A program made the position numbers and the translations under genes. The notes below the pieces were generated by a model. The model worked only from the letters and a program-made list of their open reading frames with translations, was not told where the DNA came from and did not search any database. Below are positions 8,185 through 63,721 of a DNA stretch of 64,000 bases, in pieces. Origin of the DNA: Parcubacteria bacterium C7867-001 (lineage in GTDB: Bacteria > Patescibacteriota > Minisyncoccia > Phycocordibacterales > Phycocordibacteraceae); contig LFCK01000001.1 in NCBI GenBank assembly GCA_001189095.1, positions 20,133 to 84,132 of the forward strand, in the 5' to 3' direction. Each line of letters starts with the position of its first letter. Positions within the stretch are counted from its first letter, which is position 1.

Positions 8185-9663
8185 ATGCTTACGCGCTTCT
8201 CGTACGTGTTTCTTGGTGCCGGCTCAGGCGCTCTCGTGGCGTTTGCATACTATTTCCCCTATAGCTGGCCGGTTATATTTATCGCGCTTATTCCACTTCT
8301 GCATGCGGTCCGTACTGCTCGTACATGGAAAGGTGCGCTCGTCGCAGGCATGGTTACCGGTGCGATCCTTGTGGGTGCAACAACATTCTGGATGTTTGCG
8401 TCGCGGCCACTTCCAACCGCGTTTAGTCTTTCGCCGTTCGTTGGCTTCCTAAGCGTCTTGGTCAGTTGGCTCTTAATCATGCTTTTTACAGCCCCTCTTG
8501 TTGGGGTATGGGCAGTGTGTGTGCGACGCTTTTTTCAATCAAGCATACTCGCTACGGTGGGTGTTGCGATACTGTGGGTTTTCATCGTTGAGTATCTGCG
8601 CATGTATGGATTTGCGCTGGTGACCTACACGCCGCTTGTTTCAAATCCACTCTTCTGGACGACGGGTGCGCTCGGGTATCCACTTGCCGACAATGAGAAT
8701 TGGTTGCAGCTTGCATCTCTCGGCGGCCTTTGGCTCCTCTCCTTTACGGTAGTGTTGGTAAACGCACTCATATATCAGTTCGTCGTGCGCGCAAGCGGAA
8801 AGAGGAGAGTAATTGCCGGAGGAGTACTCGCAACGGCACTACTTATTGCTAGCGTACTTCCGATTATTTCTTGGCGTGATGCTGGGACAAGCACTCCGTC
8901 GGTACCCATAGGGTTCATGTCGCTGTGGTCGCATAACGAGGACCAGTTCGCTGCGATTACGGATGTGCATCAAGATGCGCAACGAGCCATTATTGACCTT
9001 GCAGAAAAAGGCGCACGCATTATTGTCTTGCCCGAAGGGGAAGACTATATCGATCTTCATACGTCTATCGATATTGATCGGCTGCGCCATGAAGGGGTCA
9101 TGATTGTCGCCGCAGGTCCAACGCGTTCTCCTGACGGAAAGAAGTTGTTGCGGGGGTACGTCAGTGACGCAGAAACGGGAGTGGCCGAAACCATACGAAA
9201 CAAAATGGTCCTAACCCCACAAGGGGAGTTTTTGATCGGTATATTCCGGTACGGTATGCCGCTTATTGGTTTAGAGAAAAGTGTCGCTCGCTTTGAAGAC
9301 ACGAAAGCGCTGGGTATTGGCAGTTGGGGGAGTGCAATTGAGTACGGAACACTGCGTGCATCACTCATGTTTTGTTTTGAGGTATTTGCACCGAATTTCG
9401 GAAAAGAGTTAGTCCGGCGACAAGATTCGGATGTGGTGTTGGCGATGATTTCTCATGCACGATTTTATGACGCGCAAAACCTTCACCAGGATACCTTTCG
9501 ATTCTTGCGCGTTCGCGGGGTCGAAGCAGGCGTGCCACTTATTGTTTCAACGAATCATACGCTCGCCTATGCGTTTGATAGCTACGGTCGGATTCTCATG
9601 ACCGAGGGTGCTAGACATGAGTCAGAGTGGGGGATCGTCTCAGTACCGCTTATCCCACGCTGA
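8185..9663 (+). CDS. lnt: Apolipoprotein N-acyltransferase-like protein (Lnt; polytopic membrane domain plus C-N hydrolase domain)
   Basis: The N-terminal half has many TM helices. The C-terminal half has RIIVLPEGEDY (catalytic Glu) and ASLMFCFEVFAP (catalytic Cys), which are C-N hydrolase hallmarks. An alternative GTG start lies at 8164. The ORF-track 5' extension overlaps the upstream gene and is rejected. Confidence 0.6.
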   Translation: MLTRFSYVFLGAGSGALVAFAYYFPYSWPVIFIALIPLLHAVRTARTWKGALVAGMVTGAILVGATTFWMFASRPLPTAFSLSPFVGFLSVLVSWLLIMLFTAPLVGVWAVCVRRFFQSSILATVGVAILWVFIVEYLRMYGFALVTYTPLVSNPLFWTTGALGYPLADNENWLQLASLGGLWLLSFTVVLVNALIYQFVVRASGKRRVIAGGVLATALLIASVLPIISWRDAGTSTPSVPIGFMSLWSHNEDQFAAITDVHQDAQRAIIDLAEKGARIIVLPEGEDYIDLHTSIDIDRLRHEGVMIVAAGPTRSPDGKKLLRGYVSDAETGVAETIRNKMVLTPQGEFLIGIFRYGMPLIGLEKSVARFEDTKALGIGSWGSAIEYGTLRASLMFCFEVFAPNFGKELVRRQDSDVVLAMISHARFYDAQNLHQDTFRFLRVRGVEAGVPLIVSTNHTLAYAFDSYGRILMTEGARHESEWGIVSVPLIPR

Positions 9664-9706
9664 TGTTCCACCGACGCCCCTGCCTTTTTCATAGGGAGGG
9701 GATAGA

Positions 9707-12700
9707 ATGTACTTGAACCTTATATACACCTATACCATGCAACGACTTACTACCATCTGGGCACCCGCTCTCATTGCGTTCGCGCTGGTAACCGCTCCTA
9801 TGGTCTCCTACGCGCAAACAGCCCCCGTCATTCCTCAGGTACGCGTGTCACATGTTGAGATGCTTTCAGTAACGTTTACGGAAGGAGCGGTGGCGTCGGG
9901 AGTATTTACGATCTCAAACGCAGGGAGTGGGTCCGCGGGAAATATAGACTACGTCATCCGACTTGTTGGTGACTACGACAAGAATGGAAACTGGGGTGTC
10001 GAGTACGCTTCTCAAGAAGTAGGTCCAATAGCCCTTGGTCCGAACGAAGTTCGATTGGTGCCATTTGCTATTGAACTTCCTGCAGGGGTTGCGGGGAACG
10101 ATCTTGGTATAGAAGTGCAGGCAATGCTTGGTTCAGGATTCCCGCTCGGGTGGGCAGAGAAGCGTATCATTATTACCGGTACGCACACCTACCCAAAACT
10201 TACTGAAGCATATGTTGCAATCGGAGAAGGTAAGTTTGCGGTCGGTGAAGGGCCAACGATTCACTCAGATGAGAGCGCGGAATTGGTAGGAACATTTCAG
10301 AATAACGCTGCAACATCCCTTACACTTACTCCAAGCATCGCGCACAAGTCGATGACGGGTGACGTCGTCCGTACCGAGAAGGCCGCAACGTTTACGATTG
10401 CGCCAAACAGTTCACATGAGTTTCGTATCCCCGTAGCAGCGAGTAGCGCAAAGCCCGGCGTGTACCTCGCGAACATTACCTTCCTCGATGAGGGTGGAAA
10501 GCAGCATGCCCAACTTGTAAGCTATCGATACATTCTCCAAGGAGACGATATCGCAAACATTCAGTCTGCGAGTGCGGACAAAATAAGCGTTAAAGCAAAA
10601 GAGACAGTCACTATTTCGGTTTCCTTCAGTGGTACGCCGCCTGATATCAATCGTCCGGGAGCAAAAGAACAAGGAGTCGCTCTTCTTACGGTGAAGGCAT
10701 ACAGCGAGCGTGGGACAGAACTGGGTTCGAATACAAAGGAAGTAAATCTCGATACTGAGCACGTAGCCAGTGTCCCAATTGTGGTGAACGCTTCCGCAAG
10801 TTCTCTTCAGGTAAGTGCCACCCTTACGAAAGATGGGAAGGTGCTTGCCTCTCTCGAAGCGCCAGTGTCACCGAAGTTCGGTATTGAATCGATTCGTGCG
10901 AAAACGGCACTGTACTTCATGTATAGCCTCACAGCGCTTCTTGTTATTATCGGTCTCGTCCTGCTGGTGCGGAGCTATCGTTCTACGGTGCCGATGGTAA
11001 AGACACGTCAAGCGGGCATTACGCTTCTCGCGCTTGCGGCAGTTTCCGGTATTGTCAGCGTACTTATCATTATCGGTTTGTTTACGCCCCCGCAACAGGC
11101 AGTGAGCTTGAACCTCTCCACTCCGGTCGCGCATGCTGAGGGCAATCAAAAGGTTTGCGTTACCGATCCAGCAGCGTGTGGTCTTGGTGGCGGCGAAGCA
11201 GGAACACAGGAAGTCATTGTAAATCCTGATGTATGTCCGCTCGATGATGGTGTGCAGGAAATTGGGACGCCCTGCGTTCATTCAGAAATGGTTAGTTTCA
11301 TATTTGTTAATGACAATGCAACGTGGGAGTACTACGTGAGGACGTACCTTCCTATATGGAAGAAGACATCCACTGTTCCGTATCGGTATTGGCAGTTTGA
11401 GGATCGGTATGATGAATCAGTTGGTATCGGATTGAGTCCATCGCGTGTCACCATGGAAGCTACGAACAATCCATTACAGAATCCTTTTACGCATGCCTAT
11501 GACTCGTATTGGGAAGCAGGAATGGGAGGAGCAAGCAAGCGGTATATAGCAACAGATGCAGCCTCTTCGGCGGAACAATACTACGAAACACCATCTGACT
11601 TTAACAATCAGCCGCCATTCGTTAGCGTTTCTTCAATTCCTGGACCGATTCGCCCAGGAGACGAGTTTACGCTACAAGGAGCAATCACCTACGTCGACTG
11701 CACAAACACTCCTTCAGGCTTCTTGGTAAATGGAAGATTCGAAGGTCAGGAATTCTCGCAGGAATTTCCTGCAAACCAGTTCACTGGTCACGAACTCACT
11801 ACTGTTCAGAGACGCTTCTCTAAAACATTTACTGCTCCAACCACTCCCGGTATCTATAGGGTGTACTTGGATATGGGTTGGGAAGTTCCCGTACTTTCGA
11901 TGGGAGGCACGCTTCGTGGCCACATTGACATTGAGGTGAAGGCGGAAGTTGACCTTACACCGACCGACCTTGCACCAACGAGCGCTATTGTGAATGTACC
12001 AACAACCGTGTCGGTAAAGGTAAATAACACCGAACCTGATCCGGTTGGAATAAGTAACACGCGTTTCGAAATTCAGGGTCCTGATTTTGGGTATGAAACC
12101 CACACCGTGCAAGGGGAAAGTTGCACCATAACAAAAGAGGGGCAGATATGTGAGCCAACAACTTCGGAAGAGTCAGTCCAGATCGGGTATTACCTCGACC
12201 AGCATGTGGTAACGGCCGCAATGTCCGGTAACGGTTTCTCGACAGCTTCGTTCCCGCTTACGTTTACACAAGAAGGAACGTATAAAGTCCGAGCGTGCGT
12301 CGACTATGCATGTGGTTGGAATGCATACGGCGTATATTCGTGTGATGTGGGTTCGATTCCTGAAACGAATGAGGCCAACAATTGCACGGCAGGAGATTGG
12401 ACCGACATTGTGGTAGGTCCGGCAGTTGCTGCTGTGTCTTGCACCGTCAACAACGAAAACCCCGCTCTCGGTGAATCAGTCACATACACCGCAACTCCGG
12501 TATATGGTGCAACCGGCCCATACATCTGGACGGCCTCCGACGGTGCAACTGGTCTCGGCACAGGCAGCACCGCAACACGCTCCTTCTCTACCGCGGGTAC
12601 CTACGGTATGAGCGTATCTGCAACCGGCGCACTCTCTTCAGGATTCTGTCCAAACGTGACGGCGGGCAATGCGTGCTCGAACCCTGAAGCAACACTCTCT

Positions 12701-12952
12701 GCCTCTCCAAACCGTGTGAAGCAAGATGTCCCAACCCAAGTCACCTTCAGCTATAGGGCAACGGGTGCTTCTTCCTGCACACTCACCGGTCCTGATGTGA
12801 ACCAAACGTATACCGCAAACGAATGTACTGTCTCAGCAGGGACGCACAATGCGACCCTCACCATCACCACTCAAGGGGTGTATACCCTCACTTGTGACGG
12901 CGACGAAGCGAAGGCCGTTGTGAACGTCATACCGAAATTCAATGAGTTCTAG
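9707..12952 (+). CDS. Large surface protein (1081 aa): signal peptide, two internal TM helices, a Cys-containing distal region, and a conserved C-terminal domain ending in KFNEF
   Basis: The N-terminus has a signal peptide (LTTIWAPALIAFALVTAPMVSYAQT). Two TM helices lie mid-protein (YFMYSLTALLVIIGLVLLV and GITLLALAAVSGIVSVLIIIGLF). A C-terminal module of about 175 aa is shared with the CDS at 13903-15861. Confidence 0.7.
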   Translation: MYLNLIYTYTMQRLTTIWAPALIAFALVTAPMVSYAQTAPVIPQVRVSHVEMLSVTFTEGAVASGVFTISNAGSGSAGNIDYVIRLVGDYDKNGNWGVEYASQEVGPIALGPNEVRLVPFAIELPAGVAGNDLGIEVQAMLGSGFPLGWAEKRIIITGTHTYPKLTEAYVAIGEGKFAVGEGPTIHSDESAELVGTFQNNAATSLTLTPSIAHKSMTGDVVRTEKAATFTIAPNSSHEFRIPVAASSAKPGVYLANITFLDEGGKQHAQLVSYRYILQGDDIANIQSASADKISVKAKETVTISVSFSGTPPDINRPGAKEQGVALLTVKAYSERGTELGSNTKEVNLDTEHVASVPIVVNASASSLQVSATLTKDGKVLASLEAPVSPKFGIESIRAKTALYFMYSLTALLVIIGLVLLVRSYRSTVPMVKTRQAGITLLALAAVSGIVSVLIIIGLFTPPQQAVSLNLSTPVAHAEGNQKVCVTDPAACGLGGGEAGTQEVIVNPDVCPLDDGVQEIGTPCVHSEMVSFIFVNDNATWEYYVRTYLPIWKKTSTVPYRYWQFEDRYDESVGIGLSPSRVTMEATNNPLQNPFTHAYDSYWEAGMGGASKRYIATDAASSAEQYYETPSDFNNQPPFVSVSSIPGPIRPGDEFTLQGAITYVDCTNTPSGFLVNGRFEGQEFSQEFPANQFTGHELTTVQRRFSKTFTAPTTPGIYRVYLDMGWEVPVLSMGGTLRGHIDIEVKAEVDLTPTDLAPTSAIVNVPTTVSVKVNNTEPDPVGISNTRFEIQGPDFGYETHTVQGESCTITKEGQICEPTTSEESVQIGYYLDQHVVTAAMSGNGFSTASFPLTFTQEGTYKVRACVDYACGWNAYGVYSCDVGSIPETNEANNCTAGDWTDIVVGPAVAAVSCTVNNENPALGESVTYTATPVYGATGPYIWTASDGATGLGTGSTATRSFSTAGTYGMSVSATGALSSGFCPNVTAGNACSNPEATLSASPNRVKQDVPTQVTFSYRATGASSCTLTGPDVNQTYTANECTVSAGTHNATLTITTQGVYTLTCDGDEAKAVVNVIPKFNEF

Positions 12953-13024
12953 GGTGTGGGTTGGTGTTGCGTGTATCCCCACACGAATCCAGAGCTCAGG
13001 GCCTTGCTTGATACAATTAAAGGA

Positions 13025-13906
13025 ATGAGAAAGGTGATAGCTCTCGGTGTGGGCGCCGTCGTAATCGTTTTGATCGGTATTCTTGTGCTTAATCCGCAGC
13101 TCGTACGATATCTGAAGAATCAAGTTGCACTTCTCACTGGTTCGATAACCTTAGAAGAGGAACTTAAGCCCGCGTTGTTTGTTGCTCCTCTTAACGGCGG
13201 GGTATACACCAGCAACGGGAAAAACGTCACGCGTGGGTATCTTCCGAAAGGGACTGTGATCATTGATGCTGCGCGATCTCCGACGAGGCTCGTTGTCGTT
13301 AGTCGTCTCCCTGATGGGCTCTATGGCATATGGACTGATGGTATCTTGCGTACGTCGTCAGCGACAAAGAAAAACGACATCGACGTTACGCCAAACGGGT
13401 ATCGCGTTGCGTATGTTGAAGAGGGAAAAGGAACATCATCGGTCATTCTTTTGACCGCAGACGGTGTGTCCCAAACAATCGCAAGCAGTTCGCAGCCGCT
13501 CTTCTTGAGCGACACGGTCATTGCAGTATCGGATGCGAGCGGCGTTGCGCTCTATGCTCTTGAAGACCTTACGAAAGCTCCTCGCCGCGTCGCAGTGCTC
13601 GGTACGGCAACTGCGCTTGTCGCCGCATCTCCTGATAGGAGCTTCATCGCGGCAGTTGATGAGGAGAAAGGACAGACAACTGTGTATCGATCAATCAATC
13701 CGCAGGAAGGACTGTTTGTCGCGCAGTCGGTTTCTCCCTACCTTGCAGCATCTTCACTTATCCTTACTCCAAACGCACTCTATGTGCTTACCCCGCCAAA
13801 TAAATCACTGCAGCGTGGACTCTTCAAATACTCATTTGATGGTGGTGCCCCAGCAAAGCTCCGCAGTTACGATGGCGATATGTATATAACCAAGATACTT
13901 CCATGA
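13025..13906 (+). CDS. Membrane-anchored beta-propeller/TolB-like repeat protein (hypothetical)
   Basis: An N-terminal TM anchor (VIALGVGAVVIVLIGILVL) is followed by repeated strand-rich segments. The gene sits between the two large secreted-protein genes. Its stop overlaps the next start in an ATGA arrangement. Confidence 0.5.
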   Translation: MRKVIALGVGAVVIVLIGILVLNPQLVRYLKNQVALLTGSITLEEELKPALFVAPLNGGVYTSNGKNVTRGYLPKGTVIIDAARSPTRLVVVSRLPDGLYGIWTDGILRTSSATKKNDIDVTPNGYRVAYVEEGKGTSSVILLTADGVSQTIASSSQPLFLSDTVIAVSDASGVALYALEDLTKAPRRVAVLGTATALVAASPDRSFIAAVDEEKGQTTVYRSINPQEGLFVAQSVSPYLAASSLILTPNALYVLTPPNKSLQRGLFKYSFDGGAPAKLRSYDGDMYITKILP

Positions 13907-15861
13907 TGCGCTCTTCTTTTTTTCGTACGGCAACGTTGACGCTTCTCTTTTTTGCAGCGTGGGTCTCTTTGGTGCATGCAGACGGTATGGCTGACCCGTG
14001 CGCGGGAGAACTGTCTCAAATTTGTTTCCCCTCAGATCCGGTAGCATCCGTATCGCTCACCGCGTACCCAGATAGCGTGCCGACAGCCTCTCATTCCACT
14101 GATCTTTCATGGGCTGCAGAAAACGTGGATTCATGTACGAGCTCGGGTTTCAGTACGGGCAGTGCCTTCTATGGGAGTCTGTCGCTAGTTCCCGGCTCAA
14201 CGCAGACCTATACCATCACGTGTACCAGTTCTCTGGGAACAGTATCCGATTCAATCACTGTTTCGGTTACCCCGAAACCAGATTTCATTTCTGGTAACGT
14301 GGGAAGTGTATCGGCGACCGTCGGTAATCCGGTAACGCTCAGCGCAATGATTGGGAATGTGGGCAACGCTGATTCAGTGAGCCCTTTTTATTACGCCTTC
14401 ACACTCAATGGTCCGACTCCGGTGTATGTAGCAGGGTATCGTGATGCCTCCCTTGCGGCAGGAGCAAATATGATTGCTTCAGAAGAAGTCACCTTTGCGA
14501 TACCCGGCACCTACAGTGCGGTTGTGTGTGCGGATACTACGAACGCAATAAATGAAACATCGGAGACAAACAACTGCAGCGAACCAGTACAGATTATTGT
14601 ATCGGACGCCGTGGAGTGTTCAGACGGTATTGATAACGACGGTGATGGGGGTGTCGATGTATCGGGTGCGTCTGGCGGCACGGTGACGGGACCGGAGTGC
14701 GGTGAAGGTATCCTTATTTTGGAAGGACCTTATAATTATTCTGGAAATTCGCCGTCTGGCGGTTACTTTTCGTGGCCTTCATGTGAAGCTGCTCCACTGC
14801 CGCCTGATGCTGACTGTAGTAGCGGGGGAGATACTAATGAAACCCATGTACCACAATGTTCCGACGGTATCGATAACGATGGTGACGGGGGTGTCGACTT
14901 TGAGGGTATAAATGACCCAGGGGGTACATTCTGCGGTAACGTCACAACACAGAGCGGCTACGATGGTGAAGGGCACCTCGACCTCTTCTGTGTTTCTGAG
15001 TACGAGGCCGGTACTATTGGGATTCGGTGGGCATATTATGGCAATAACCTGCAGGGAGGCATGTGTACTAGTTGGGGATTTGATAACGGAGCATACGCAC
15101 CAAATGGTGGAGGGGGCGAGAGCGGCGGTACGTCAGGAGAAGTCCTTGTTACACCAACAGAAGACACCGACTACGGCTTATCATGCTCGACAGACTGCAA
15201 CATATATAACGGCTGTATCGATCTTGATGGCTCAACCGCTGAAGCAAGCGGTGGGTTCCAAGTAACCGTGCAGGCACCGGTTACTGTTGATGCTGATCCG
15301 GGCTGCGAAAGTCCTGAGGACGAAACCGAGTCGCCGGACCCGACGCTCTCGTGCACAGTCGATTCTTCATCTGTTTCTCCGGGTGGCAGCACTACGTACC
15401 GCGTAACGGGAGGGGGTACTCCATACGCATGGACCGCTTCAGATGGGGCAACAGGACTTGGGACAGGCTCGACGGCAACGCGCTCTTTCCCATCTGCAGG
15501 AAGCTACAGCATGTCGGTCTCCTCAACAGGCTTTACTGCAGGAACGTGTCCTGCGGTTATCGTGAGCGGTTCGTCATGTTCAAATCTTTCCGGAAGTCTC
15601 TCGGTGAGTCCGAATCGCATAACCGAAAATACTTCGACGCAGGTGACCTTTACCTACACCGCAACAGGGGTCACGAATTCCTGCACCATAGAGGGTCCCG
15701 GAGTAAACGAGACGCTCTCTATCTCTGGCTGCAATGCAACAGGTTCGACACTCACCCAAACCTTAAATATCCCGAATCAGGGGGTCTATAACCTCACGTG
15801 CGACGGGACTCGTGTCGGCCGTGCAGTCGTGAATACGAAGGTCCGCTTCCAAGAGTTTTAA
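13903..15861 (+). CDS. Large secreted protein (652 aa) with two MopE-like CxDGxDNDxDGxxD motifs and the same C-terminal module ending in RFQEF
   Basis: There is a signal peptide ([19 protein letters not shown]). [16 protein letters not shown] and [15 protein letters not shown] repeats are present. The C-terminal roughly 175 aa are paralogous to the C-terminus of the 9707-12952 protein. Confidence 0.7.
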
Positions 15862-20225: not shown

Positions 20226-21482
20226 CTAGCGCCACGCGCGTTCAACACCCGTCGCAACGTCATAAATGGAGCGGATGAGCCAGAACGGAGCGATGAGTCC
20301 GTATACGAACACATAGCCGATGATGCCGATCACAAGACCAGAGTCGGTATTCGATACTCTACGACCGACCATCATGAAGAATATTGAAATGGTCGTGACT
20401 ACGAATCCGATGACGGTCACGAACGAAAGGGCTGCATAGAACCACTCGATGGAGAATCGCGGCATGAGGCTGTAGGAAAGCGGAACTCCAGCGGAGAGCG
20501 AGAAGACGTGGACGATTTCGCGGATGATCATGAAGAAGGCGATACCGAACAGGGAGACGCCGCCCAAGACGGCAACGAAGCCGAGTGGGAGCACCATGAG
20601 GCCAAGCACGCCGTATTTAGGGTTGCCCACGAGCCCGCGGTAGTCAGTAAGCACGTTTCGAAGGAAGCCGGTGGTCCAGCGCGTGCGCTGCTTGATGAGT
20701 TTCGGAACGGTTTTCGGAACTTTCGTGTAGACGCGTGCGCGAACGGCGTTATCTATTTCATAGCCAGCTTTCTGGATGCGCAGCGCCATTTCCATGTCTT
20801 CTGCTTGATACGCATGACGGAACCCGCCGATCTCGTTAAGCACCGACTTGCGATAGAAGGAGAAGGGGCCCGGAGTCACGTAAATCCCGTTCACGGCCGA
20901 GAGTGTATGGCGGAGTGCGATACCGAAGATATATTCCGCATTCTGCATGCGTTCAAGAAGCGATTTTGGTTCGAAGACCGACATTGCAGGGGTAACCGAG
21001 GCGACACGCGGATCCTCGAATGAAGCGATTATTTCGCGTAGTGCATCGGTCGCTACAAACGAGTCGGCATCAAGGCAGCCGATAAATTCAGCATCGCCGG
21101 CAGATTCGATGCCGATATTAATCGCGGAATGTTTTCCGCCGTTCGCTTTGTGAATCACGGTGATCTGCGGGTTCCCGACGTACGCGTCCATGACCGCTTT
21201 GGTGTTGTCGGTCGAGCCGTCGTTTACGAGAACTATCTTGAGCTTGTCTTTTGGATAGTCGAGGGCGAGCAGGGAGCGCACCGTGCCGTCAATCGTCGTT
21301 TCTTCGTTCCAGCAGGGCACGATAATGGCGACGTTTGGGGTCTCAGTCGAGACTGCGCGATAGCGACGCCGTCGCGCTGGATCTGAGAGAAAGGTAAGGA
21401 GCATGAAGACCTCGAAATAGAGGCCTAAGAAAATGAAAGGATACGCGAAATAGGTCGCGGAGAAGTCCATACCCGAAGACAC
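20226..21482 (-). CDS. Family 2 glycosyltransferase, membrane-integrated (synthase-like)
   Basis: VAIIVPCWNEETTIDGTVRSLLALDYPKDKLKIVLVNDGSTDNT is the GT2 DxD region. TM helices flank the catalytic domain. Confidence 0.8.
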   Translation of the reverse strand: MSSGMDFSATYFAYPFIFLGLYFEVFMLLTFLSDPARRRRYRAVSTETPNVAIIVPCWNEETTIDGTVRSLLALDYPKDKLKIVLVNDGSTDNTKAVMDAYVGNPQITVIHKANGGKHSAINIGIESAGDAEFIGCLDADSFVATDALREIIASFEDPRVASVTPAMSVFEPKSLLERMQNAEYIFGIALRHTLSAVNGIYVTPGPFSFYRKSVLNEIGGFRHAYQAEDMEMALRIQKAGYEIDNAVRARVYTKVPKTVPKLIKQRTRWTTGFLRNVLTDYRGLVGNPKYGVLGLMVLPLGFVAVLGGVSLFGIAFFMIIREIVHVFSLSAGVPLSYSLMPRFSIEWFYAALSFVTVIGFVVTTISIFFMMVGRRVSNTDSGLVIGIIGYVFVYGLIAPFWLIRSIYDVATGVERAWR

Positions 21483-21519: not shown

Positions 21520-22674
21520 CTAGCGGATGGTCGCGTTGTATTCGTTCGTGGTGGTTTCCTCCAGCTTTTTGTGGAGCGCATCAATTTCTTCGTTCGTAAG
21601 CGTGCGATCGAGGGAACGGTAGGTGATGCGGTAGGCGTAGCTCATCTTGTCTGCGCCGAATTTCTCATCGTTTTCGTATTTATCGAGAAGCGAAACATCT
21701 TCCACAAGATCCCCCGCCACTTCGCGCGCGAGATCGAAGAAGTTATTCGGGACGAAATCCTTTCCGACAATGAAGGAGATATCGCGGACGATAGGAGGGA
21801 ACTTGCTCACTTCCTTGAACTCCGTTCCGAGAACAAGCTGCTTCTTCACACGTTCGTCGTCCGACCAAAGAAGGCGGATGTCCGGAAGAGACATGGAGGT
21901 AATAGCGAGTCGTTCGAGACCGAATCCGAACGCCCAGCCGTGATAGCCGGTGACGCCCATCTTCTCGAGCACGGATTTCTTTGGCATGCCGCTGCCAAGA
22001 ATCTCAAGCCACTTTCCCTTTGCTGGGCCTTCGGCCGCCGTGCCCTCGACGTCGAGTTCAACTTCAAACGACGGATCGGTGTAGGGGAACGTGTCGGTGT
22101 TAATCCGAAATTTCTGCTCCGGGCCGAATACAGCATGCACAATATCCCCGAGCACTTTCTTGAGGTCGTCGGGTTCGACAGGCATTGAATCAGGTGCGAT
22201 GTACCAACCTCCGAACTGATGGAAGACGTTCATGTGACGGCTATCGATTTCGTCCTTGCGGTAGACCTTGCCGAAGCAGAGTGCGCCCATCGCTTCGCCC
22301 TTTGCAATTCGTTCTTTGATGGCAGGATCGTTGAGGTAGTAGTACCAGAATACGGTGTCGTGGGTACGCAGAATGTTCTTTTCGTCAGCGTAGTATGTGT
22401 CCGAGGTAGAACGAGCGGGGTGGTCGGCAGGGAAGTCGAAGAGATCGAAGGAAATGTTGGCCGGAACGATTTCTGGGATTTCAATAATATCGAATCCAGA
22501 CAAGGCCGGCACCTTCTTCACGCGCTCGACGATTTCGTGGAGCGGGCTTCCTTGTGTGCGGGAAAGGTCGGGCATCGAAAGGTAGCGCTTCATGCGGAGC
22601 GCCTCGAAATCCGAGCGGGACTCAAGCTCTCCCCGCAATCGCGTTTCGTCGCTTCGATCGATTTTTATATCCAT
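21520..22674 (-). CDS. pheS: Phenylalanine--tRNA ligase, single-chain form (PheS-like catalytic domain fused to a C-terminal FDX-ACB anticodon-binding domain)
   Basis: FPYTDPSFEVEL matches the class II PheS motif. The C-terminus has RDISFIV...LLDKYEN...KMSYAYRITYRSLDRTLTNEEI, which resembles the PheT C-terminal FDX-ACB domain. No pheT is adjacent. Confidence 0.75.
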   Translation of the reverse strand: MDIKIDRSDETRLRGELESRSDFEALRMKRYLSMPDLSRTQGSPLHEIVERVKKVPALSGFDIIEIPEIVPANISFDLFDFPADHPARSTSDTYYADEKNILRTHDTVFWYYYLNDPAIKERIAKGEAMGALCFGKVYRKDEIDSRHMNVFHQFGGWYIAPDSMPVEPDDLKKVLGDIVHAVFGPEQKFRINTDTFPYTDPSFEVELDVEGTAAEGPAKGKWLEILGSGMPKKSVLEKMGVTGYHGWAFGFGLERLAITSMSLPDIRLLWSDDERVKKQLVLGTEFKEVSKFPPIVRDISFIVGKDFVPNNFFDLAREVAGDLVEDVSLLDKYENDEKFGADKMSYAYRITYRSLDRTLTNEEIDALHKKLEETTTNEYNATIR

Positions 22675-22699: not shown

Positions 22700-22735
22700 T
22701 ATAAAAACAAGCCGCTCGGGGTTACCGAGCGGCTG
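22700..22735 (-). terminator. Intrinsic terminator (minus strand) after the small membrane gene
   Basis: The reverse complement is gccgctcggtaaccccgagcggc followed by ttgttttt. It shares its 5' context tataaaaacaagccgctcg with the terminator at 23044-23080. Confidence 0.6.
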
Positions 22736-22740
22736 ATGGT

Positions 22741-23007
22741 TTAGATAGGAATATGTAGGTGCCGGAAGAGCCAAGGTTTGAAAACGTTCCAGATGAACCA
22801 GAACATCGCGAGGCAGAGGGCTCCGATTCCGACGAGGCCAAGACCGATGAGTGCGGTCAGCCATCCTTTGGATCCGAAGCCGTTATAGATGAATCCTTCA
22901 ACGATGGCTAGCACGCCCATGAGGGCCGTGATAACGCCGGTGAAGTATCCGAGATACATGCATATTCTGGTCGGATCGTCCCACAGTTCCTTAAGAATCT
23001 TTTTCAT
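22741..23007 (-). CDS. Small membrane protein (88 aa, 2-3 TM helices), hypothetical
   Basis: The sequence has hydrophobic segments. An intrinsic terminator lies directly downstream on the minus strand. Confidence 0.5.
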   Translation of the reverse strand: MKKILKELWDDPTRICMYLGYFTGVITALMGVLAIVEGFIYNGFGSKGWLTALIGLGLVGIGALCLAMFWFIWNVFKPWLFRHLHIPI

Positions 23008-23043
23008 GCAGAACTCCTTTCTGAACGAACCTTACTTCTGTCA

Positions 23044-23080
23044 TTTATAAAAAACAAGCCGCTCGCGTGAGCGAGCGGCC
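23044..23080 (-). terminator. Intrinsic terminator (minus strand; also plausible on the plus strand)
   Basis: gccgctcgc-gtga-gcgagcggc is flanked by an A-run and a T-run. Confidence 0.6.
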
Positions 23081-23104
23081 GTTTTGGGGCAGGGCAGTAA
23101 ATCT

Positions 23105-23290
23105 CTACGCGCGGCGCTTTTGGCGCACACGCGGCGCTTGCCGGTCGGCGAAGCGCAGATCGGTGACGCGAACGTCGCCGAGCGGACCGGTTTTCCGGTC
23201 GAGGTCATCGATGAAGCGATTCACGTCCACAACCTCCCCGCGAGGGGAGAAGGACGCGTCACTGCCAATGTCATAGAAAGAACGGGACAT
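23105..23290 (-). CDS. Small hypothetical protein (61 aa, Arg-rich C-terminus)
   Basis: The ORF is followed on the minus strand by a strong terminator at 23044-23080. Confidence 0.4.
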   Translation of the reverse strand: MSRSFYDIGSDASFSPRGEVVDVNRFIDDLDRKTGPLGDVRVTDLRFADRQAPRVRQKRRA

Positions 23291-23447
23291 ATTGATCTCC
23301 GTGACACGGCTCGGCCCTCCGAACCGTGATACATGTAATATACAGTTTACGCATACTTTGTCAAGTTATTTGAAATCTTGGTGGGGTTGGGTAGAAACAG
23401 AAGTCGCCCGCGCATGGGAATGCGCGGGCGACGCTCGTCGAGCGAGC

Positions 23448-23672
23448 TTAGAGAAGGCTGGGAACGTGCCGAGACGTCAGCGGTTCGATGCCGAATTGCG
23501 CGGCTTCGAGCGGACGGGTCTGGGTTTCGAAAACTCCGTTGGGCAGAATGCGATGCCCGTAGGTTTCGAACCAGACCCAGTGCGGCTTGCCGTCTCGGCG
23601 GGTTCCAACCTTGGTGGGGAAAAACGCATAGCGCGGTTCCCACTCGTACAGGTCTTTTTCGGCTTGCGCCAT
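23448..23672 (-). CDS. Small hypothetical protein (74 aa)
   Basis: The ORF is followed on the minus strand by the hairpin gtcgcccgcgca...tgcgcgggcgac. Confidence 0.45.
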   Translation of the reverse strand: MAQAEKDLYEWEPRYAFFPTKVGTRRDGKPHWVWFETYGHRILPNGVFETQTRPLEAAQFGIEPLTSRHVPSLL

Positions 23673-23790: not shown

Positions 23791-25896
<2,106 letters not shown>

Positions 25897-25949: not shown

Positions 25950-26714
25950 TTAGAGAATCTCGATTGCGATAGAACCGCTGTTGTTGTTCTCGCTCGTCTC
26001 GACGATCTTCTTATCAGGATCGATAGAGATGTCGATGGTGCGCGTGCCAGTGCGGCCGCGATCGAAGCCGAGGGTGAAGTCGATGTGCTCACCCGGAAGA
26101 AGTGCCGCCTGCGTCGGGGACGAGAAGGTGTAGCTCGGGGAAGTCGGGAGCGTTGCGTCGAAATCCCAGCCACCAGTGGTGTTGGTACCGACGTTCGTCA
26201 CCGTGAAGCGAACCGCGCCGCGCTTACCGTCTGGAACGGTCTTTGAAGCGACGAAGGAGGTAGTGTCAGTCTGGTTTGCGAGGTAACCGACTGCAACGAT
26301 GTTTACTGAAAGGTCAGAGAGACCATAGAGCGTACCCTGTTGCGGAACGGCAGTACCGCCACCAACCACATACGTGCCGGTCGTGCGGGGGCCAGCAGAC
26401 GGGGTTACCGCTGCCGGAGTTCCACCAGTCGACGGGGTAGTCGGAGTTGTATCAGTCGACGTTGCGACAACCGAAGAACCCTCGTCATCCTTCGACGGAA
26501 CGACCGTAAGTTCGTTCGTCGACGCCGGAGAAAAGACCGATGAGAAATAAACGCTTGCCGTTGCAAGGCGAGTAACCGCCTGCGGGATATAGCGTGCCGA
26601 ATAAATCGCAAGCGTCATGCCTGCGAAAATTAGTGCCACGAAACCGACAACGGCAAGACCGTTGACCATCGCGCGGCGCGTTCCCTGTGAAGTATTCATC
26701 GTTTCCATACGCAT
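25950..26714 (-). CDS. Membrane-anchored Thr/Pro-rich protein with a CARDB-like C-terminal domain
   Basis: An N-terminal TM anchor is followed by a T/P-rich linker. The C-terminal region has FTVTNVGTNTTGGWDF...ENNNSGSIAIEI, which is CARDB-like. Confidence 0.55.
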   Translation of the reverse strand: MRMETMNTSQGTRRAMVNGLAVVGFVALIFAGMTLAIYSARYIPQAVTRLATASVYFSSVFSPASTNELTVVPSKDDEGSSVVATSTDTTPTTPSTGGTPAAVTPSAGPRTTGTYVVGGGTAVPQQGTLYGLSDLSVNIVAVGYLANQTDTTSFVASKTVPDGKRGAVRFTVTNVGTNTTGGWDFDATLPTSPSYTFSSPTQAALLPGEHIDFTLGFDRGRTGTRTIDISIDPDKKIVETSENNNSGSIAIEIL

Positions 26715-26863
26715 ATATATCTAGCACACCCTCGATTTGTTGTCAAGTGTCTGGATTCATGCTCGTATTCGCCGCTCGTTGTTGACAGAGCCCTACTCTT
26801 TCCGTTACGTTCGATAGTGGGCGGGGAAAAGCCTTCCCAATGGGGAACACATGGAGGCAATGA

Positions 26864-27271
26864 ATGACAGTACCAGTGAGTCTACGCAGCGAGGATCTTA
26901 CGGTTGCACTTGCGATCGCAGCGCTCCAAGCCTACGTACCTCATGAGGAAATTCGCCTCGGACGAGCGCAGGATGACATCCTGTTCTGGTCCGGTTTTTC
27001 AGAACGGTTCCTGAAGAAGATTGACCGCATCGAACACCTCGGCGTGCTTAAGCCGGACGGGGTTCTCGACGCGGACATCGAACGGGTCGTCTCGCTCTTG
27101 TGCGAAGGCGATCGGGAGTGGTCATCAGTGGTGACCATCTTCCATCGAACGAGTCATGCAAACCTGTTATGCGGTGCGCACCGGTTGGTGCGCACATTCG
27201 CGCTTTACGGGATTGTGCATGGCTGCCTCAAGGAAAAGCCTGAGGCCACGACGCTCCGCGCCGTCGCCTAA
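26864..27271 (+). CDS. Hypothetical protein (135 aa)
   Basis: A GGAGG RBS lies 8 nt upstream. A terminator lies downstream at 27286-27322. Confidence 0.45.
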   Translation: MTVPVSLRSEDLTVALAIAALQAYVPHEEIRLGRAQDDILFWSGFSERFLKKIDRIEHLGVLKPDGVLDADIERVVSLLCEGDREWSSVVTIFHRTSHANLLCGAHRLVRTFALYGIVHGCLKEKPEATTLRAVA

Positions 27272-27394
27272 GGGAAACCCAAAACCAAGCGCCACGCGAA
27301 AATCGCGTGGCGCTCTTGTTGTAGGCCGTATTCGGGCGTTTGACGTACCCCTTGACAAATGGCGGAATATAGTGTACTTATATGTAGGACCGAT

Positions 27395-28117
27395 ATGGCA
27401 TTGGTACACAAGGTGGCGGCAGCCGTTCGTGCCGCACAGGATACGTATGCAAGGAAGTGGACCTTCCTTGCGGCTTTTCTTGGTGTCTTCTTCGTCTCGT
27501 TCCTCATCCTGCAGGATCTCGGTTTCGTGCCGAATCCGCCGCAGATTGCGGAAGCGGGTACGAACGAACCGAAGGTAACGCTTGAAGCGTCGCCGCTTGT
27601 TGCGGCTCCGTCTTCAATGGCTCACCTCTCGGCGGATGTGTCGGATGCAGGGCTTTTCGGTCTTCATGCTGGCGAGCTTCCGGTCGCCATCGAGATTCCG
27701 ACCATCGGTCTTTCAGTGAAGGTGTCGAATCCGAATTCGACCGATGTCGGGAAGCTCGATGCGGCGCTTCTTACCGGAGCAGTCCGCTACCCGACGTCCG
27801 GCACGCTTGGCGTGAAGGGTAATGTCGTTATCTTCGCGCACTCGAGCTACCTTCCGGTCGTGAAGAATCCGGCGTTCAAGGCGTTCGATGATATTCAGAA
27901 GCTCGCACCGGGTGAGCGCATCACGGTATATTCAGGCACTCGTGCGTATACCTATGCAGTGACTCGTGTAGAAAAAGTGAAAGCCGACGATGCAGCTATT
28001 CCGCTTACGGTGAATGGCAGCAAGCTGACGCTCTCGACGTGTGACTCGTTTGGCACGAAGAGTGATCGCTTTGTCGTCACCGCAGATTTTGTTGAAAGCC
28101 ATACGCTCGCGAACTAA
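27395..28117 (+). CDS. Sortase-family transpeptidase
   Basis: There is an N-terminal TM anchor. The conserved His is in NVVIFAHSSY. The catalytic TLxTC motif is LTLSTCD. The ORF-track start at 27359 is a possible alternative. Confidence 0.75.
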   Translation: MALVHKVAAAVRAAQDTYARKWTFLAAFLGVFFVSFLILQDLGFVPNPPQIAEAGTNEPKVTLEASPLVAAPSSMAHLSADVSDAGLFGLHAGELPVAIEIPTIGLSVKVSNPNSTDVGKLDAALLTGAVRYPTSGTLGVKGNVVIFAHSSYLPVVKNPAFKAFDDIQKLAPGERITVYSGTRAYTYAVTRVEKVKADDAAIPLTVNGSKLTLSTCDSFGTKSDRFVVTADFVESHTLAN

Positions 28118-28208
28118 TCGCGCGCGGATGGCTTCCTGCAAAGGAGGCGCGGATTCCTAGTTCATTCACAACGTCGCGCATCACGCGCGACAAGAGGAGG
28201 GCATCCTA

Positions 28209-29351
28209 ATGCCAGAACGTCGTGAGACTCGCGACGGGATCGGGTTCTTCGGGTGGGCGGGTTTACTCGCACTCCTGTTGATTATTTTCGGAGGCGCGTT
28301 CCTGTATTGGGACACGCACCGGAACCCCAGCCTGTCGAATGATTCCGGCGCCGCGCCTTTTGCGGCTACGGAGGATACGAGTACTGAACCGGTGGAGGCG
28401 CGTGCGCCACCACCGGAAGAACCGGCTGCGGAAACCAAACCGCAGACCGACTCGCCGAAGCCGCGTAACACCGGCTTCTACTACGGTCTGAAGGATCCGA
28501 GCGAGCTCGCAAAGCTCGTCGAGGACAATCTTCGGAAGGATCCGACGGGGAAGACGATGATCAACCCCGAGAAATGCGCCAAGGACGGCTCATGCGCCAG
28601 TCCTCATGACTATCTCGTTATGTTCCAAGAGAACGACCCGGAAGCTGAGCTCACGTCAGTGGCCCAGCTCCCTGCGTTCCTGCGGAGCCTTGTCGCTCGG
28701 GACCCCGGTCCCGGCGAGTATCAGATGGCGTGCATCAGGATGCCGGCTCACACGCCGGACCTGCACTGCATGAAGCGTAAATTCCTGCCGGGCGAAAAGG
28801 TCTATGTCGACCCCAAGTCGAATAGGGCCATCTTTGCTTGGCACTGCACGAACCCCATCGATAAACCGGTGGAGCCACGGCAGTGCATGGAAATCATGGT
28901 GACCATCAAAGGCGAGCGTTCGATGAAGTTCGCGCACCTCGGCCCCGCCAAGGTGCAGGACTCGTGCCTTGCTTTGCGCAAGGTCGGAGTGGGAGTAATT
29001 CCGCTTCGCGAGTACGTCGGTGAGTGCGACTTCGACGCGGTTGCCGAGTTCTTCGGCGAACGCGTGCGCGAGGAGTACTGCGTTCCGGTAACACCCGGTA
29101 CGTACATTCTCACGGTCGCGGCGAAGCCTTACGGCGAGCCAAAGACCCGTCACTGGTGGGTGTTCTGTTGGTCGGATGAGGACGACGTGTCGTCGAACAC
29201 GATGCGCGTCCGAGACTTCGATTACATCGGCAACGATGTGCGTCGCGCGACGATTTACAACTCGCGCGATGAAATGGAAGACAAGACCTATCCCAAGAGC
29301 GTTTCGCACTTGTGGATTCCGTGGAGCGAAGAGCCCGGCACGGACCGCTAA
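28209..29351 (+). CDS. Membrane-anchored Cys-rich hypothetical protein (380 aa)
   Basis: A GAGGAGG RBS is present. There is an N-terminal TM anchor (FFGWAGLLALLLIIFGGAFLYW), a Pro/Glu-rich linker, and more than 10 Cys in the C-terminal domain. A terminator lies at 29358-29400. Confidence 0.55.
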   Translation: MPERRETRDGIGFFGWAGLLALLLIIFGGAFLYWDTHRNPSLSNDSGAAPFAATEDTSTEPVEARAPPPEEPAAETKPQTDSPKPRNTGFYYGLKDPSELAKLVEDNLRKDPTGKTMINPEKCAKDGSCASPHDYLVMFQENDPEAELTSVAQLPAFLRSLVARDPGPGEYQMACIRMPAHTPDLHCMKRKFLPGEKVYVDPKSNRAIFAWHCTNPIDKPVEPRQCMEIMVTIKGERSMKFAHLGPAKVQDSCLALRKVGVGVIPLREYVGECDFDAVAEFFGERVREEYCVPVTPGTYILTVAAKPYGEPKTRHWWVFCWSDEDDVSSNTMRVRDFDYIGNDVRRATIYNSRDEMEDKTYPKSVSHLWIPWSEEPGTDR

Positions 29352-29357
29352 GGGAAT

Positions 29358-29400
29358 GGACGGCACGCTTCGCGTGCCGTCCTGAACCTCCTCTTTTTTG
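29358..29400 (+). terminator. Intrinsic terminator after the Cys-rich protein gene
   Basis: ggacggcacgc-ttcg-cgtgccgtcc is followed by a T6 run about 10 nt downstream. Confidence 0.5.
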
Positions 29401-29464
29401 TACGCCCGCAAGGGCAGGGGCTTATTTATTACCTGTTTATCAATTGAACGAAACAACAACACGT

Positions 29465-31381
29465 ATGGTGTACTTCACCGAACAGATCGCATATGTGAAA
29501 TCGCGACCGATTGCCGTCGGTATTTTCGCCGTGCTTGCTGCCGTCTCGATCGGCATGACCGTCGCTGTCGCGACTGGCATGACGCTTCCGACGAAAGCGT
29601 TCGCGGACGTTGGTCCTCCCTGCTGCACGGAGCCGCCTCCTCCGCCCCCGCCTCCTCCACCACCCCCACCGCCTCCGTCGAGCTGTGATTCACTCACGGC
29701 GTCGGCAACGGAAATTAATTCAGGCGATGCGGTTACCCTTACGTGGCACACCACCAACGCCGACTCGGTCACTATCGATCAGGGTGTTGGTTCGGTGACA
29801 CCAGTCGGTTCAGGTTCGGTTGTCGTACATCCGACTGCGGATACGACGTACTCGGCTACCGTTACGGGTCCTGGCATCGTCAGCGAGCCGTGCCATGTTG
29901 AAGTAAAGATAAAGACCATCACTAACTCGGCGCAGTGCGTGTCGTTTGCGGCAAGCGCGTCGAACATCACGGCTGGTCAGGCAGTCACGCTTTCGTGGCA
30001 GACCCTTAATGCAACGGGAGTTACCATCGACAACGGTGTCGGTGCGGTAACGCCGATTGCGTCCGGTTCCACTGTCGTGCATCCGACCGCGAACACGACC
30101 TATACCGCAACGGTTGCAGGTGCAACCGGTAACGTGACGTGTGCCGCTTCGGTCCACATCACGACTATTACAACCGGTCCGTCTTGCGTCGCTCTTACAG
30201 CGAACAAGACCACGATTAGTTCTGGCGAAGCAGTCGTTCTCTCGTGGCAGACGCTTAATGCCACCTCGACCTCAATCGATCAGGGCATTGGTTCGGTTAC
30301 TCCAGTCGGTTCAGGTTCCGTAACGGTGAACCCAACCTCTGATACGACCTACACCATGACCACTGCGGGCGCTCCGGCGAACGACAGCTGTAAGGTGACG
30401 GTTCGCATTCAGACGAGTTCCTGCGTCGGCTCGTGCTGCACAGGCAGCTGCGGTGGCGGCGGTAATCCGAAGCCGAAGGTCATCCTTGGCGTCGCAACCT
30501 CTTCGCCGCTTGCCTTCGTGTATCTCTCGCAGGTTCCGTACACCGGTCTTGATCTCGGTCCGCTCGGTACCTTCATGTACTGGCTCGTGCTCATCCTCTG
30601 GAGCGCAGCAGCTGCGTACCTTGTGCTCTTCACGGCAGCCCCATTCGCTGCTCGTCGTCTCCGTTCGTTCGGGGAAGATGTGCGCGATGTTCTCAATGGA
30701 AATGAATCGGTCTCAACTGCGCCGGTCATGCAGGCATCGGCGGGGGATCATTCAGGTGGACATAATCTTATGCCGCACGCTCCAGTTCCAGTTCACCGTG
30801 CTCCAGAAGCATCGAGCACGTTCTCGAACTTCCACGGCTTCCGCTCGTTTGCGCAGGGCACTGAGCTTACGATCGATGATCTCGTGAAGGGACTCGCTCG
30901 CGAACACGCAGTACATGCTGCTCCAGTTGCGCATATCGAGGATCCGAAAGAAGATGCGTACGCGTTCTCGTCTGAACGAAATGTCGAGCCTATCGCCCCG
31001 CATCTTCCGACTGAAATAGGGAAGATTGAACCGATCATGGACGTATTCGCACACGCAATCGAAGTTCGTGGATTCATTTCCGCGCTCGTCGAGAAGGACA
31101 AGGAGGCGCTCTTCGGCGCACTTCGCCAAATCGTTCGCGGCGGCGGTAGCGTTGAGCACTTCCTTACGCAGGTCGCGCACGCACTCGATGATGTCTTCCG
31201 CTCGCGCATCGACGGTACGCCGGCAGATCCCGAGATGGTTCGCATCTGTGTGAACTGCGACACGCCGGTTCTTGAGCAGCTCGTCGGTCACTTTGCGACG
31301 GCAATCGACTCAAGCTACTCGACCGATGTCACGGCAGGTAAGATGGCGGTCACTCGCGCACTTACGACGCTCGAAGCGTAA
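29465..31381 (+). CDS. Modular membrane protein with six parts: signal/anchor; poly-Pro linker; three tandem Ig-like repeats of about 80 aa; a VPYTG motif; a TM helix; a C-terminal domain of about 240 aa
   Basis: The protein has PPPPPPPPPPPPPPP. The repeat consensus is AVTLxWxTxNAxxxxIDxGxGxVTPxxSGSxxVxPTxxTTY. Further downstream is SQVPYTGLDLGPLGTFMYWLVLILWSAAAAYLVLF followed by RRLR. The ORF-track start at 29312 overlaps the upstream gene and is rejected. Confidence 0.6.
   Translation: MVYFTEQIAYVKSRPIAVGIFAVLAAVSIGMTVAVATGMTLPTKAFADVGPPCCTEPPPPPPPPPPPPPPPSSCDSLTASATEINSGDAVTLTWHTTNADSVTIDQGVGSVTPVGSGSVVVHPTADTTYSATVTGPGIVSEPCHVEVKIKTITNSAQCVSFAASASNITAGQAVTLSWQTLNATGVTIDNGVGAVTPIASGSTVVHPTANTTYTATVAGATGNVTCAASVHITTITTGPSCVALTANKTTISSGEAVVLSWQTLNATSTSIDQGIGSVTPVGSGSVTVNPTSDTTYTMTTAGAPANDSCKVTVRIQTSSCVGSCCTGSCGGGGNPKPKVILGVATSSPLAFVYLSQVPYTGLDLGPLGTFMYWLVLILWSAAAAYLVLFTAAPFAARRLRSFGEDVRDVLNGNESVSTAPVMQASAGDHSGGHNLMPHAPVPVHRAPEASSTFSNFHGFRSFAQGTELTIDDLVKGLAREHAVHAAPVAHIEDPKEDAYAFSSERNVEPIAPHLPTEIGKIEPIMDVFAHAIEVRGFISALVEKDKEALFGALRQIVRGGGSVEHFLTQVAHALDDVFRSRIDGTPADPEMVRICVNCDTPVLEQLVGHFATAIDSSYSTDVTAGKMAVTRALTTLEA
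29630..29677 (+). repeat. CCN simple-sequence repeat encoding poly-proline
   Basis: The DNA is ccgcctcctccgcccccgcctcctccaccacccccaccgcctccg. Confidence 0.8.
29681..30415 (+). repeat. Three diverged tandem coding repeats (about 243 nt each)
   Basis: The repeats are recognisable at DNA level (gtcggttcaggttc...ccgac...acgac.ta.ac) and at protein level. Confidence 0.7.
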
Positions 31382-60405: not shown

Positions 60406-60632
60406 TTTTCTCTTTCGAAGATCCGGATACCCCAAGGGTACTTCCAATTTCCTAACTCGCTGTCGCTCCTAACGAAATTTGGGCGCGCACGAAAAGCCTC
60501 AAAATATCAAAGTAAACAACCAGTTTATTTGGGGAGGAAATACTGGTGCCTAATGGCGCGTGTGGACAAAAAACTCACCTGTTATAGAGTTTAGGTATCC
60601 GATAGCTATAACAACAGCCGGCACATACACGC

Positions 60633-61945: not shown

Positions 61946-61947
61946 AT

Positions 61948-62718: not shown

Positions 62719-62729
62719 GACTCTTTGGC

Positions 62730-63167: not shown

Positions 63168-63242
63168 TCGTTTATTCTAACATCGACCGAATGGGCTCGC
63201 CTTCTTCATCGAAATTAGAGGGTTGGACGGTATACTGAGTCC

Positions 63243-63716: not shown

Positions 63717-63721
63717 CGCCT

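Follow-up and report, generated by a model that had tools for sequence, protein, structure and literature searches.

The 64,000-nt stretch of the Parcubacteria bacterium C7867-001 genome analysed here (contig LFCK01000001.1; hereafter the window) carries, at positions 21520-22674 of its minus strand, a gene for a single-chain phenylalanyl-tRNA synthetase (PheRS), which joins a PheS-type catalytic core to an anticodon-binding domain of the PheT type. We consider it very probable that this 384-aa protein is a functional housekeeping PheRS, present as the sole copy and lacking editing in cis. A first-pass annotation of the window had pointed to the gene, and its position, length and quoted peptides agreed with the open reading frame (ORF) listing and with our translation; the peptide RDISFIV...SYAYRITYRS is present in the C-terminal domain. 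The protein is 100% identical to the NCBI entry 'phenylalanine--tRNA ligase, alpha subunit [Parcubacteria bacterium C7867-001]' whose contig spans up to 390,547 bp, and occurs too in GCA_002396685.1 and in one JGI metagenome. The features of the gene are:

21520..22674 (-): single-chain PheRS gene (ORF listing: ATG start, 384 aa and stop codon)
22564..22674 (-): N-terminal helical extension, aa 1-37, outside every Pfam model and kept in the Parcubacteria clade
21838..22563 (-): PheS-type class II catalytic core, aa 38-279 (PF01409)
22216..22272 (-): class II motif 2 region GKVYRKDEIDSRHMNVFHQ, aa 135-153 (coordinates checked by translation)
22069..22089 (-): Phe-pocket motif FPYTDPS, aa 196-202 (by correspondence to the pocket residues of the Thermus and human mitochondrial enzymes)
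22015..22044 (-): 10-aa insertion GTAAEGPAKG in a hairpin, aa 211-220, specific to the clade (homologue alignment)
21904..21939 (-): class II motif 3 region GWAFGFGLERLA, aa 246-257 (coordinates checked by translation)
21808..21837 (-): inter-domain linker and presumed hinge, aa 280-289, between the two Pfam domains
21523..21807 (-): FDX-ACB anticodon-binding domain (PheT-B8-type, RRM-like), aa 290-384 (PF03147, TIGR00472 and alignment with E. coli PheT)

Domain architecture and fold of the single-chain PheRS

Hidden Markov model domain calls bore out the proposed combination of a PheS-type core with a C-terminal FDX-ACB domain. Pfam assigned aa 38-279 to PF01409 (tRNA-synt_2d; E 5.8e-51, 173.8 bits against a gathering cutoff of 19.8) and aa 290-384 to PF03147 (FDX-ACB; E 1.8e-23, 83.2 bits against a cutoff of 31.1, covering profile positions 1-94 of 94), matches that are far beyond chance, and found nothing else in the 384 aa, neither a B3/B4 editing domain nor PF02912. 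Consistently, the C-terminal domain matched positions 698-798 of the PheT model TIGR00472, and in tblastn searches of the window E. coli PheT aligned only through its residues 696-794 (B8), at nt 21523-21822, while the alignment of E. coli PheS was confined to this gene's core.

The mitochondrial-type architecture that the first-pass annotation had put forward was supported by these domain calls and also by structural comparison. The best sequence matches in the PDB were to human mitochondrial PheRS (E about 3e-53), followed by bacterial PheS chains (E 1e-31 to 1e-20), and PheT chains were matched via B8 only. An AlphaFold2 model built from 30 homologues (predicted local distance difference test score, pLDDT, 89.4; predicted template modelling score 0.86) superposed over the whole chain, in Foldseek, on the human mitochondrial structures 3CMQ and 5MGU, which are closed, and on 5MGH, with template modelling (TM) scores of 0.76-0.77 and root-mean-square deviations of 3.2-3.7 A (about 3.3 A for 3CMQ and 5MGU) over about 395 columns; the score against the tRNA-bound open structure 3TUP was 0.56. 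Canonical bacterial PheS chains matched the core of the model only (E 1e-17 to 1e-20). The FDX-ACB domain is modelled in a beta-alpha-beta-beta-alpha arrangement, and the comparison of the closed 3CMQ with the open 3TUP structure suggests, by analogy, that aa 280-289 act as a presumed hinge. In the model the N-terminal extension forms two helices (aa 8-18 and 23-33), and M1, I5, E10, L13, R20, R27, Y31, L32, D36 and L37 within it are invariant in the 30 homologues; viral-type single-chain forms have a shorter N-terminus in its place.

The signature residues of catalysis are preserved. In an alignment of 22 divergent single-chain sequences with 31-77% identity to the query, R139, D141, D144, H147, F151 and Q153 of motif 2 and G250 and R255 of motif 3 are invariant, A248 and G252 of motif 3 are nearly so, and the same is true of F196 and P197 of the FPYTDPS motif, in which Y198 and T199 are invariant within the Parcubacteria family (30 homologues). 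The Phe pocket of the Thermus enzyme is formed by Phe-alpha258, Phe-alpha260 and Val-alpha261, and human mitochondrial PheRS has Thr235 at the valine position (PMC3275996). The query equivalents of Thermus F258, F260 and V261 are F196, Y198 and T199, the last being Thr as in the human mitochondrial enzyme. Across the 30 homologues the core and the FDX-ACB domain are both densely invariant, with a mean column identity of 80%. At the tip of a beta-hairpin of the core lies the insertion GTAAEGPAKG, which hardly varies among the closest relatives but is missing from P0121 (the representative of the query's 50% cluster, 58% identical), from loci L065 and L054 and from all distant single-chain forms, and is modelled at lower confidence (block pLDDT 70).

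The gene behaves as a core gene in hundreds of parcubacterial species

The distribution of the enzyme was scanned in one genome per GTDB species, which gave at least 545 confirmed relatives, and detailed comparisons were made on the best 80 of these, which are 62-78% identical to the query. Their metagenome-assembled genomes (MAGs) bear the names Kaiser-, Zambryski-, Colwell-, Vogel-, Adler- and Doudnabacteria, Paceibacteria/Paceibacterota, Minisyncoccia and Parcubacteria. The earlier statement that the architecture is rare in bacteria thus stands across phyla and fails within the Parcubacteria/Paceibacteria. In the protein database, more than 100 clusters had 73-93% identity, each of them with both domains, and public entries for single-chain sequences bear generic 'alpha subunit' or 'hypothetical' names.

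gyrB was linked to the PheRS gene in 61 of the 80 loci. In the same genomes PheRS had a mean identity of 68.7% to the window protein; the corresponding values were GyrB 71.6%, release factor 66.6%, EF-Ts 61.5%, S2 57.3% and family 2 glycosyltransferase (GT2) 51.2%, and the divergence of PheRS was correlated with that of GyrB (r 0.68, p 5e-8). Synteny with gyrB, GyrB-like conservation and correlated divergence together mark a vertically inherited, strongly constrained informational gene, and in hundreds of bacterial species the PheRS gene behaves as such a core gene.

Some records among the related loci carry unexpected labels. L006, L022, L026 and others are titled 'uncultured Candidatus Saccharibacteria', and because they encode GyrB with up to 85% identity to the window's, this label is generic. 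One copy (L062) comes from a 'Nitrospira sp.' MAG, where its contig is 4.2 kb long, and has probably been mis-binned.

No pheT or second PheS-like gene in the window or in related flanks

Classical pheS and pheT genes are normally adjacent. As the first-pass annotation had stated, no pheT adjoins the single-chain gene: its neighbours are a GT2 glycosyltransferase gene, small ORFs and gyrB, and no large ORF of the window is PheT. Pfam searches of the ten largest ORFs and tblastn with E. coli PheT and PheS revealed no pheT, no second PheS-like gene and no free-standing editing domain in the 64 kb, where residues 200-600 of E. coli PheT had no tblastn match. Likewise, no pheT B3/4-B5 region, free-standing editing domain or second PheS-like gene was present in 1.34 Mb of flanking sequence from 83 related loci. 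The absence of a PheT editing domain, also claimed at the outset, therefore holds for the protein, the window and these flanks. It does not extend to the cultured parcubacterium Minisyncoccus archaeiphilus, which has a canonical pheS-pheT pair.

In 4 of the 80 related genomes a free-standing tRNA_bind protein of 140-143 aa is encoded 27-45 nt upstream of the PheRS gene on the same strand (L065:9513-9935(+), L054:9534-9965(+), L045 about 9504-9932 and L071 about 9562-9921). Its best model is the PheT B2 region (TIGR00472 positions 41-150, 94-102 bits), with YtpR at 80-83 bits, and it may be a pheT relic acting as a tRNA-binding cofactor in trans. There is no such gene in the window, and a weak B2-like match in L039 was discarded as spurious, since it lies inside a helicase gene beside a masked stretch.

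A bacterial branch of single-chain PheRS

An exhaustive HMMER search of 1.84 billion cluster representatives gave only 172 matches at E <= 1e-30. Eukaryote-type sequences among the distant matches scored 407-434 bits on the NCBIfam model TIGR00469 (pheS_mito), and a largely viral group of about 340-370 aa passed the cutoff of this model at 260-308 bits. For three further representatives (P0125, P0126 and P0130) the best model was SrmL (NF051887, named 'PheS-related mystery ligase'), although each remained below its cutoff. P0125 comes from an Oligoflexia MAG. P0130 (L088:9463-10833(+)) lies at a locus of 32.5% GC that adjoins an F-ATPase operon, and has 13 in-frame TGA codons in columns otherwise occupied by glycine, the invariant glycines of motif 3 among them, a pattern that indicates genetic code 25 and, accordingly, a bacterium of the Gracilibacteria/Absconditabacteria type belonging to the Candidate Phyla Radiation (CPR). 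The database protein was translated with code 4 (TGA=Trp), so that its 13 'W' residues are probably wrong.

Single-chain PheRS genes (about 340-375 aa) were also found at 44 loci on viral contigs in IMG/VR, encoding proteins 29-41% identical to the query. The carriers include phage-like contigs (200-536 kb) and giant-virus MAGs reaching 1.47 Mb; the 494-kb phage-like contig of P0141 (L085; JGI 3300024262 Ga0210003_1000004) also encodes a terminase, a NUMOD homing endonuclease, a T4 RNA ligase, PNKP and a class I aminoacyl-tRNA synthetase (aaRS). Because the viral copies share no more than 41% identity with the query and fall on other branches, a phage origin of the query was rejected.

Neighbour-joining trees recovered the Parcubacteria clade with a bootstrap of 100 and a bacterial branch joining it to P0125, P0126 and P0130 with a bootstrap of 98, outside the eukaryote and viral sequences, which grouped together with a bootstrap of 37. 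A long branch separated all single-chain forms from E. coli PheS. As regards recent events, these neighbour-joining trees with E. coli PheS as their sole outgroup argue that the query clade is not an import from eukaryotes or viruses, and the query would represent a separate bacterial branch of the known single-chain PheRS type.

Longer single-chain representatives in the database (546-872 aa) have no fused editing domain; their extra parts are AlaRS, TACO1/YebC, a methyltransferase or regions without a Pfam match. P0194, P0218 and P0237, in which PheRS is joined to an AlaRS core, TACO1/YebC or a methyltransferase, typify probable eukaryotic gene-model fusions, and the other long forms are probably gene-model fusions or long start calls.

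Genomic neighbourhood

The PheRS gene lies in a chromosomal, housekeeping neighbourhood with gyrB, tRNA-Thr, NUDIX, EF-Ts, S2, a release factor, L31, dnaE, SMC, RNase R, rpoD, dnaG and a class IIa aaRS, and the GC content around it is typical of the window. The features flanking it are:

23797..25896 (+): gyrB, divergent neighbour beyond three small ORFs (Pfam HATPase_c, DNA_gyraseB, Toprim and DNA_gyraseB_C)
22710..22734 (-): terminator-like hairpin at the end of the 88-aa gene upstream, some 35 nt ahead of the start codon of PheRS (10-bp stem with 8 GC pairs, T-run)
20226..21482 (-): GT2 glycosyltransferase gene, co-directional and downstream across a 37-nt gap (Pfam Glycos_transf_2 family)

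Of the 80 related loci, 40 have a GT2 gene near that for PheRS, but GT2 has no functional part in the synthetase. Upstream of the PheRS gene there was no T-box or leader RNA, the only Rfam match in the window at gathering thresholds being the tRNA-Thr, and a sigma-70 scan between the upstream terminator and the PheRS start codon returned no convincing promoter. The small ORFs between gyrB and the PheRS gene (window 22741-23672, minus strand) encode 88, 61 and 74 aa, have no Pfam matches, are each followed by a strong terminator-like hairpin and were called in all copies of this locus. Near-consensus sigma-70-like promoters precede the 74-aa ORF (23731-23703, 12/12) and the 61-aa ORF (23364-23337, 11/12).

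Elsewhere in the window, large secreted or surface-type proteins are clustered at 9707-15861 and 25950-31381, comprising a 1081-aa ORF (weak WxLIP), a 652-aa CARDB protein, a 254-aa protein with a weak CARDB match, a sortase, and ORFs of 380 and 689 aa without a Pfam match; this cluster is typical of the surface machinery of CPR episymbionts. At the end of the window (60001-64000) the GC content falls from about 0.54-0.57 to 0.43-0.44, and this part may be a foreign island. Three consecutive ORFs within it (60633-61331, 61328-61945 and 61891-62718) have no Pfam match, and 63243-63716 encodes a PF06983 (3-dmu-9_3-mt) family protein.

Proposed function and alternative explanations

Read as the housekeeping PheRS of its host, the protein would bind Phe and ATP in its catalytic core (aa 38-279) and form Phe-AMP, and its FDX-ACB domain (aa 290-384), the same module as PheT B8, would read the anticodon of tRNA-Phe in cis, presumably within a monomer, thereby standing in for the whole PheT subunit of about 800 aa. 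By analogy with the human mitochondrial enzyme, the resting form would be closed, and the anticodon-binding domain would swing about the linker to an open state and dock the tRNA, after which Phe would be transferred to the terminal adenosine of tRNA-Phe. Because the protein contains no B3/B4 editing module, it would have no means of hydrolysing Tyr- or meta-Tyr-tRNA-Phe in cis, which would leave accuracy to the synthetic site; editing in trans is probably lacking as well.

Several points weigh against this reading. The query falls below the cutoffs of all three relevant NCBIfam equivalogs, with 214.9 bits on TIGR00469 pheS_mito (cutoff 258.35), 210.3 bits on NF051887 SrmL (cutoff 300; profile positions 31-344 of 349, end to end) and 150.7 bits on TIGR00468 pheS (cutoff 237.45). 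The second aromatic residue of its Phe pocket is Tyr (Y198), not Phe; for cytosolic PheRS, Tyr at this position is described as a conservative change (PMC3275996). The screen for pheT relied on E. coli PheT in tblastn only, with no CPR positive control, and covers the window and the related flanks; the other 300+ kb of the source genome lie outside it and might hold an unlinked pheS-pheT pair, so that genome-wide absence of pheT is probable at most. Finally, the gene table of M. archaeiphilus lists an adjacent pheT (2,046 nt, with B3/4, CLM, B5 and FDX-ACB) and pheS (1,062 nt). The class is therefore not uniform, Parcubacteria being split between alpha-beta and one-chain lineages, and mutual exclusion of the two enzymes within the group would be the parsimonious expectation.

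With respect to the model scores, P0121 does pass the pheS_mito cutoff (264.3 against 258.35), which, together with the failure of the query, shows that the family straddles this cutoff. From its score, the missing PF02912 and the lack of a partner gene nearby, the query is not a classical PheS, and by its score it is not an SrmL member either.

Among the alternatives, the one that best survives these data is that the single-chain protein is an accessory paralogue, a spare or specialised (for instance stress- or inhibitor-tolerant) PheRS beside an unlinked classical pheS-pheT pair in charge of housekeeping. Other bacteria are known to carry duplicated aaRS genes, and both the canonical pair in at least one parcubacterium and the part of the source genome beyond the screen speak for it. 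We nevertheless regard it as improbable: conservation at the level of GyrB and above that of S2, EF-Ts and the release factor, together with gyrB synteny in 61 of 80 loci, would be unusual for a dispensable spare, no second PheS- or PheT-like gene was seen in the window or the 1.34 Mb of flanks, and redundancy of aaRSs seems unlikely in very small, streamlined genomes.

A PheS-related ligase with a non-canonical, SrmL-like job, which would not charge tRNA-Phe for translation, is in our estimation highly improbable. The end-to-end match to NF051887 is, at 210.3 bits, about equal to that to pheS_mito, the nearest relatives outside the Parcubacteria (P0125, P0126 and P0130) have SrmL as their best model, and P0125 lies among non-translation genes in its MAG. 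Yet the query and every tested representative stay below the SrmL cutoff of 300, P0121 reaches that of pheS_mito, the Phe-pocket residues and a full FDX-ACB domain are conserved, and the gene combines core-gene-like conservation with a neighbourhood of translation and replication genes. A recent horizontal gain from a eukaryote (FARS2), a huge phage or a giant virus, which would make the gene non-native, can be dismissed as scarcely credible, since the 44 IMG/VR contigs and the standing of FARS2 as best-characterised relative are outweighed by the low identity of viral and eukaryote-type sequences (only 30-41%), the bootstraps of 100 and 98 that place the Parcubacteria clade and the bacterial branch outside them, window-typical GC, conserved gyrB synteny and divergence that tracks GyrB.

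A housekeeping single-chain PheRS remains the reading we prefer. A much broader extension of it, which we find doubtful, is that a large part of the CPR (many Parcubacteria/Paceibacteria and at least one code-25 lineage of the Gracilibacteria/Absconditabacteria type) fully replaced (alpha-beta)2 PheRS by the editing-free single chain, that no other cellular, non-organellar organisms are yet known to depend on an enzyme of this kind, and that this old bacterial branch, or phages shuttling it, was the source of the mitochondrial and viral forms. To our knowledge, nobody has traced the single-chain PheRS of mitochondria and viruses back to the alphaproteobacterium from which mitochondria descend.

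Should the enzyme indeed be the sole PheRS, a major bacterial radiation would translate Phe codons without PheRS proofreading, which would bear on the translational error tolerated by streamlined episymbionts. Enzymology and engineering would also gain a minimal PheRS of natural, cellular origin, and the missing prokaryotic relatives would be at hand for tracing where the enzymes of mitochondria and viruses came from. Genome-quality and phylogenomic marker sets in which pheS and pheT are expected through TIGR00468 and TIGR00472, both of which are in the GTDB bac120 set, would score such lineages as lacking both. Interest would be higher if full alpha-beta replacement, or a connection with how the mitochondrial enzyme arose, proved true.

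Comparison with known PheRS systems

Textbooks and reviews treat monomeric PheRS as a mitochondrial or organellar peculiarity. Full-text literature searches turned up no account of single-chain PheRS in bacteria or the CPR, no mention of SrmL and no paper that names FARS2 together with CPR, and the main text or supplements of several CPR genome papers yielded nothing on PheRS apart from the Minisyncoccus gene table.

The closest known system, in sequence as well as in fold, is mitochondrial PheRS (human FARS2, 3CMQ/3TUP; yeast MSF1; TIGR00469; 'PheRS-M' of AARS Online), which has the same chain of PheS core and B8 and, like the query, neither a beta subunit in the enzyme nor an editing domain. 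It is, however, only about 31-36% identical to the query, and the human enzyme has about 30 residues between motifs 2 and 3 that the query lacks. The query in turn has its own N-terminal helical extension, the 10-aa hairpin insertion and Tyr for the second pocket Phe, and it is encoded by a bacterial chromosomal gene among housekeeping genes instead of being an organellar import. The single-chain PheRSs of huge phages and giant viruses share PF01409 and PF03147 in a compact form of about 340-375 aa, but they are without the Parcubacteria N-terminal extension, several of them pass pheS_mito, and they group with eukaryote-type sequences. SrmL (NF051887) resembles the query in overall architecture, as judged by the end-to-end match, without including it as a member.

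Compared with classical (alpha-beta)2 PheRS, the query core is 32% identical to E. coli PheS over 239 aa and its C-terminal domain 27% identical to B8 of E. coli PheT over 100 aa, whereas the coiled-coil of PheS (PF02912) and the B1, B2, B3/B4, B5 and B6/B7 (CLM) domains of PheT, as known from E. coli and Thermus thermophilus, are missing. Loss of PheRS proofreading is itself described for organisms with very small genomes such as Mycoplasma and host-restricted forms (PMC7373986, which refers to Li et al. 2011 and Melnikov et al. 2018). The editing-defective Mycoplasma-type PheRS, however, keeps the alpha-beta enzyme with a mutated or degenerate editing site, whereas the parcubacterial enzyme dispenses with the whole beta subunit except for its anticodon-binding domain.

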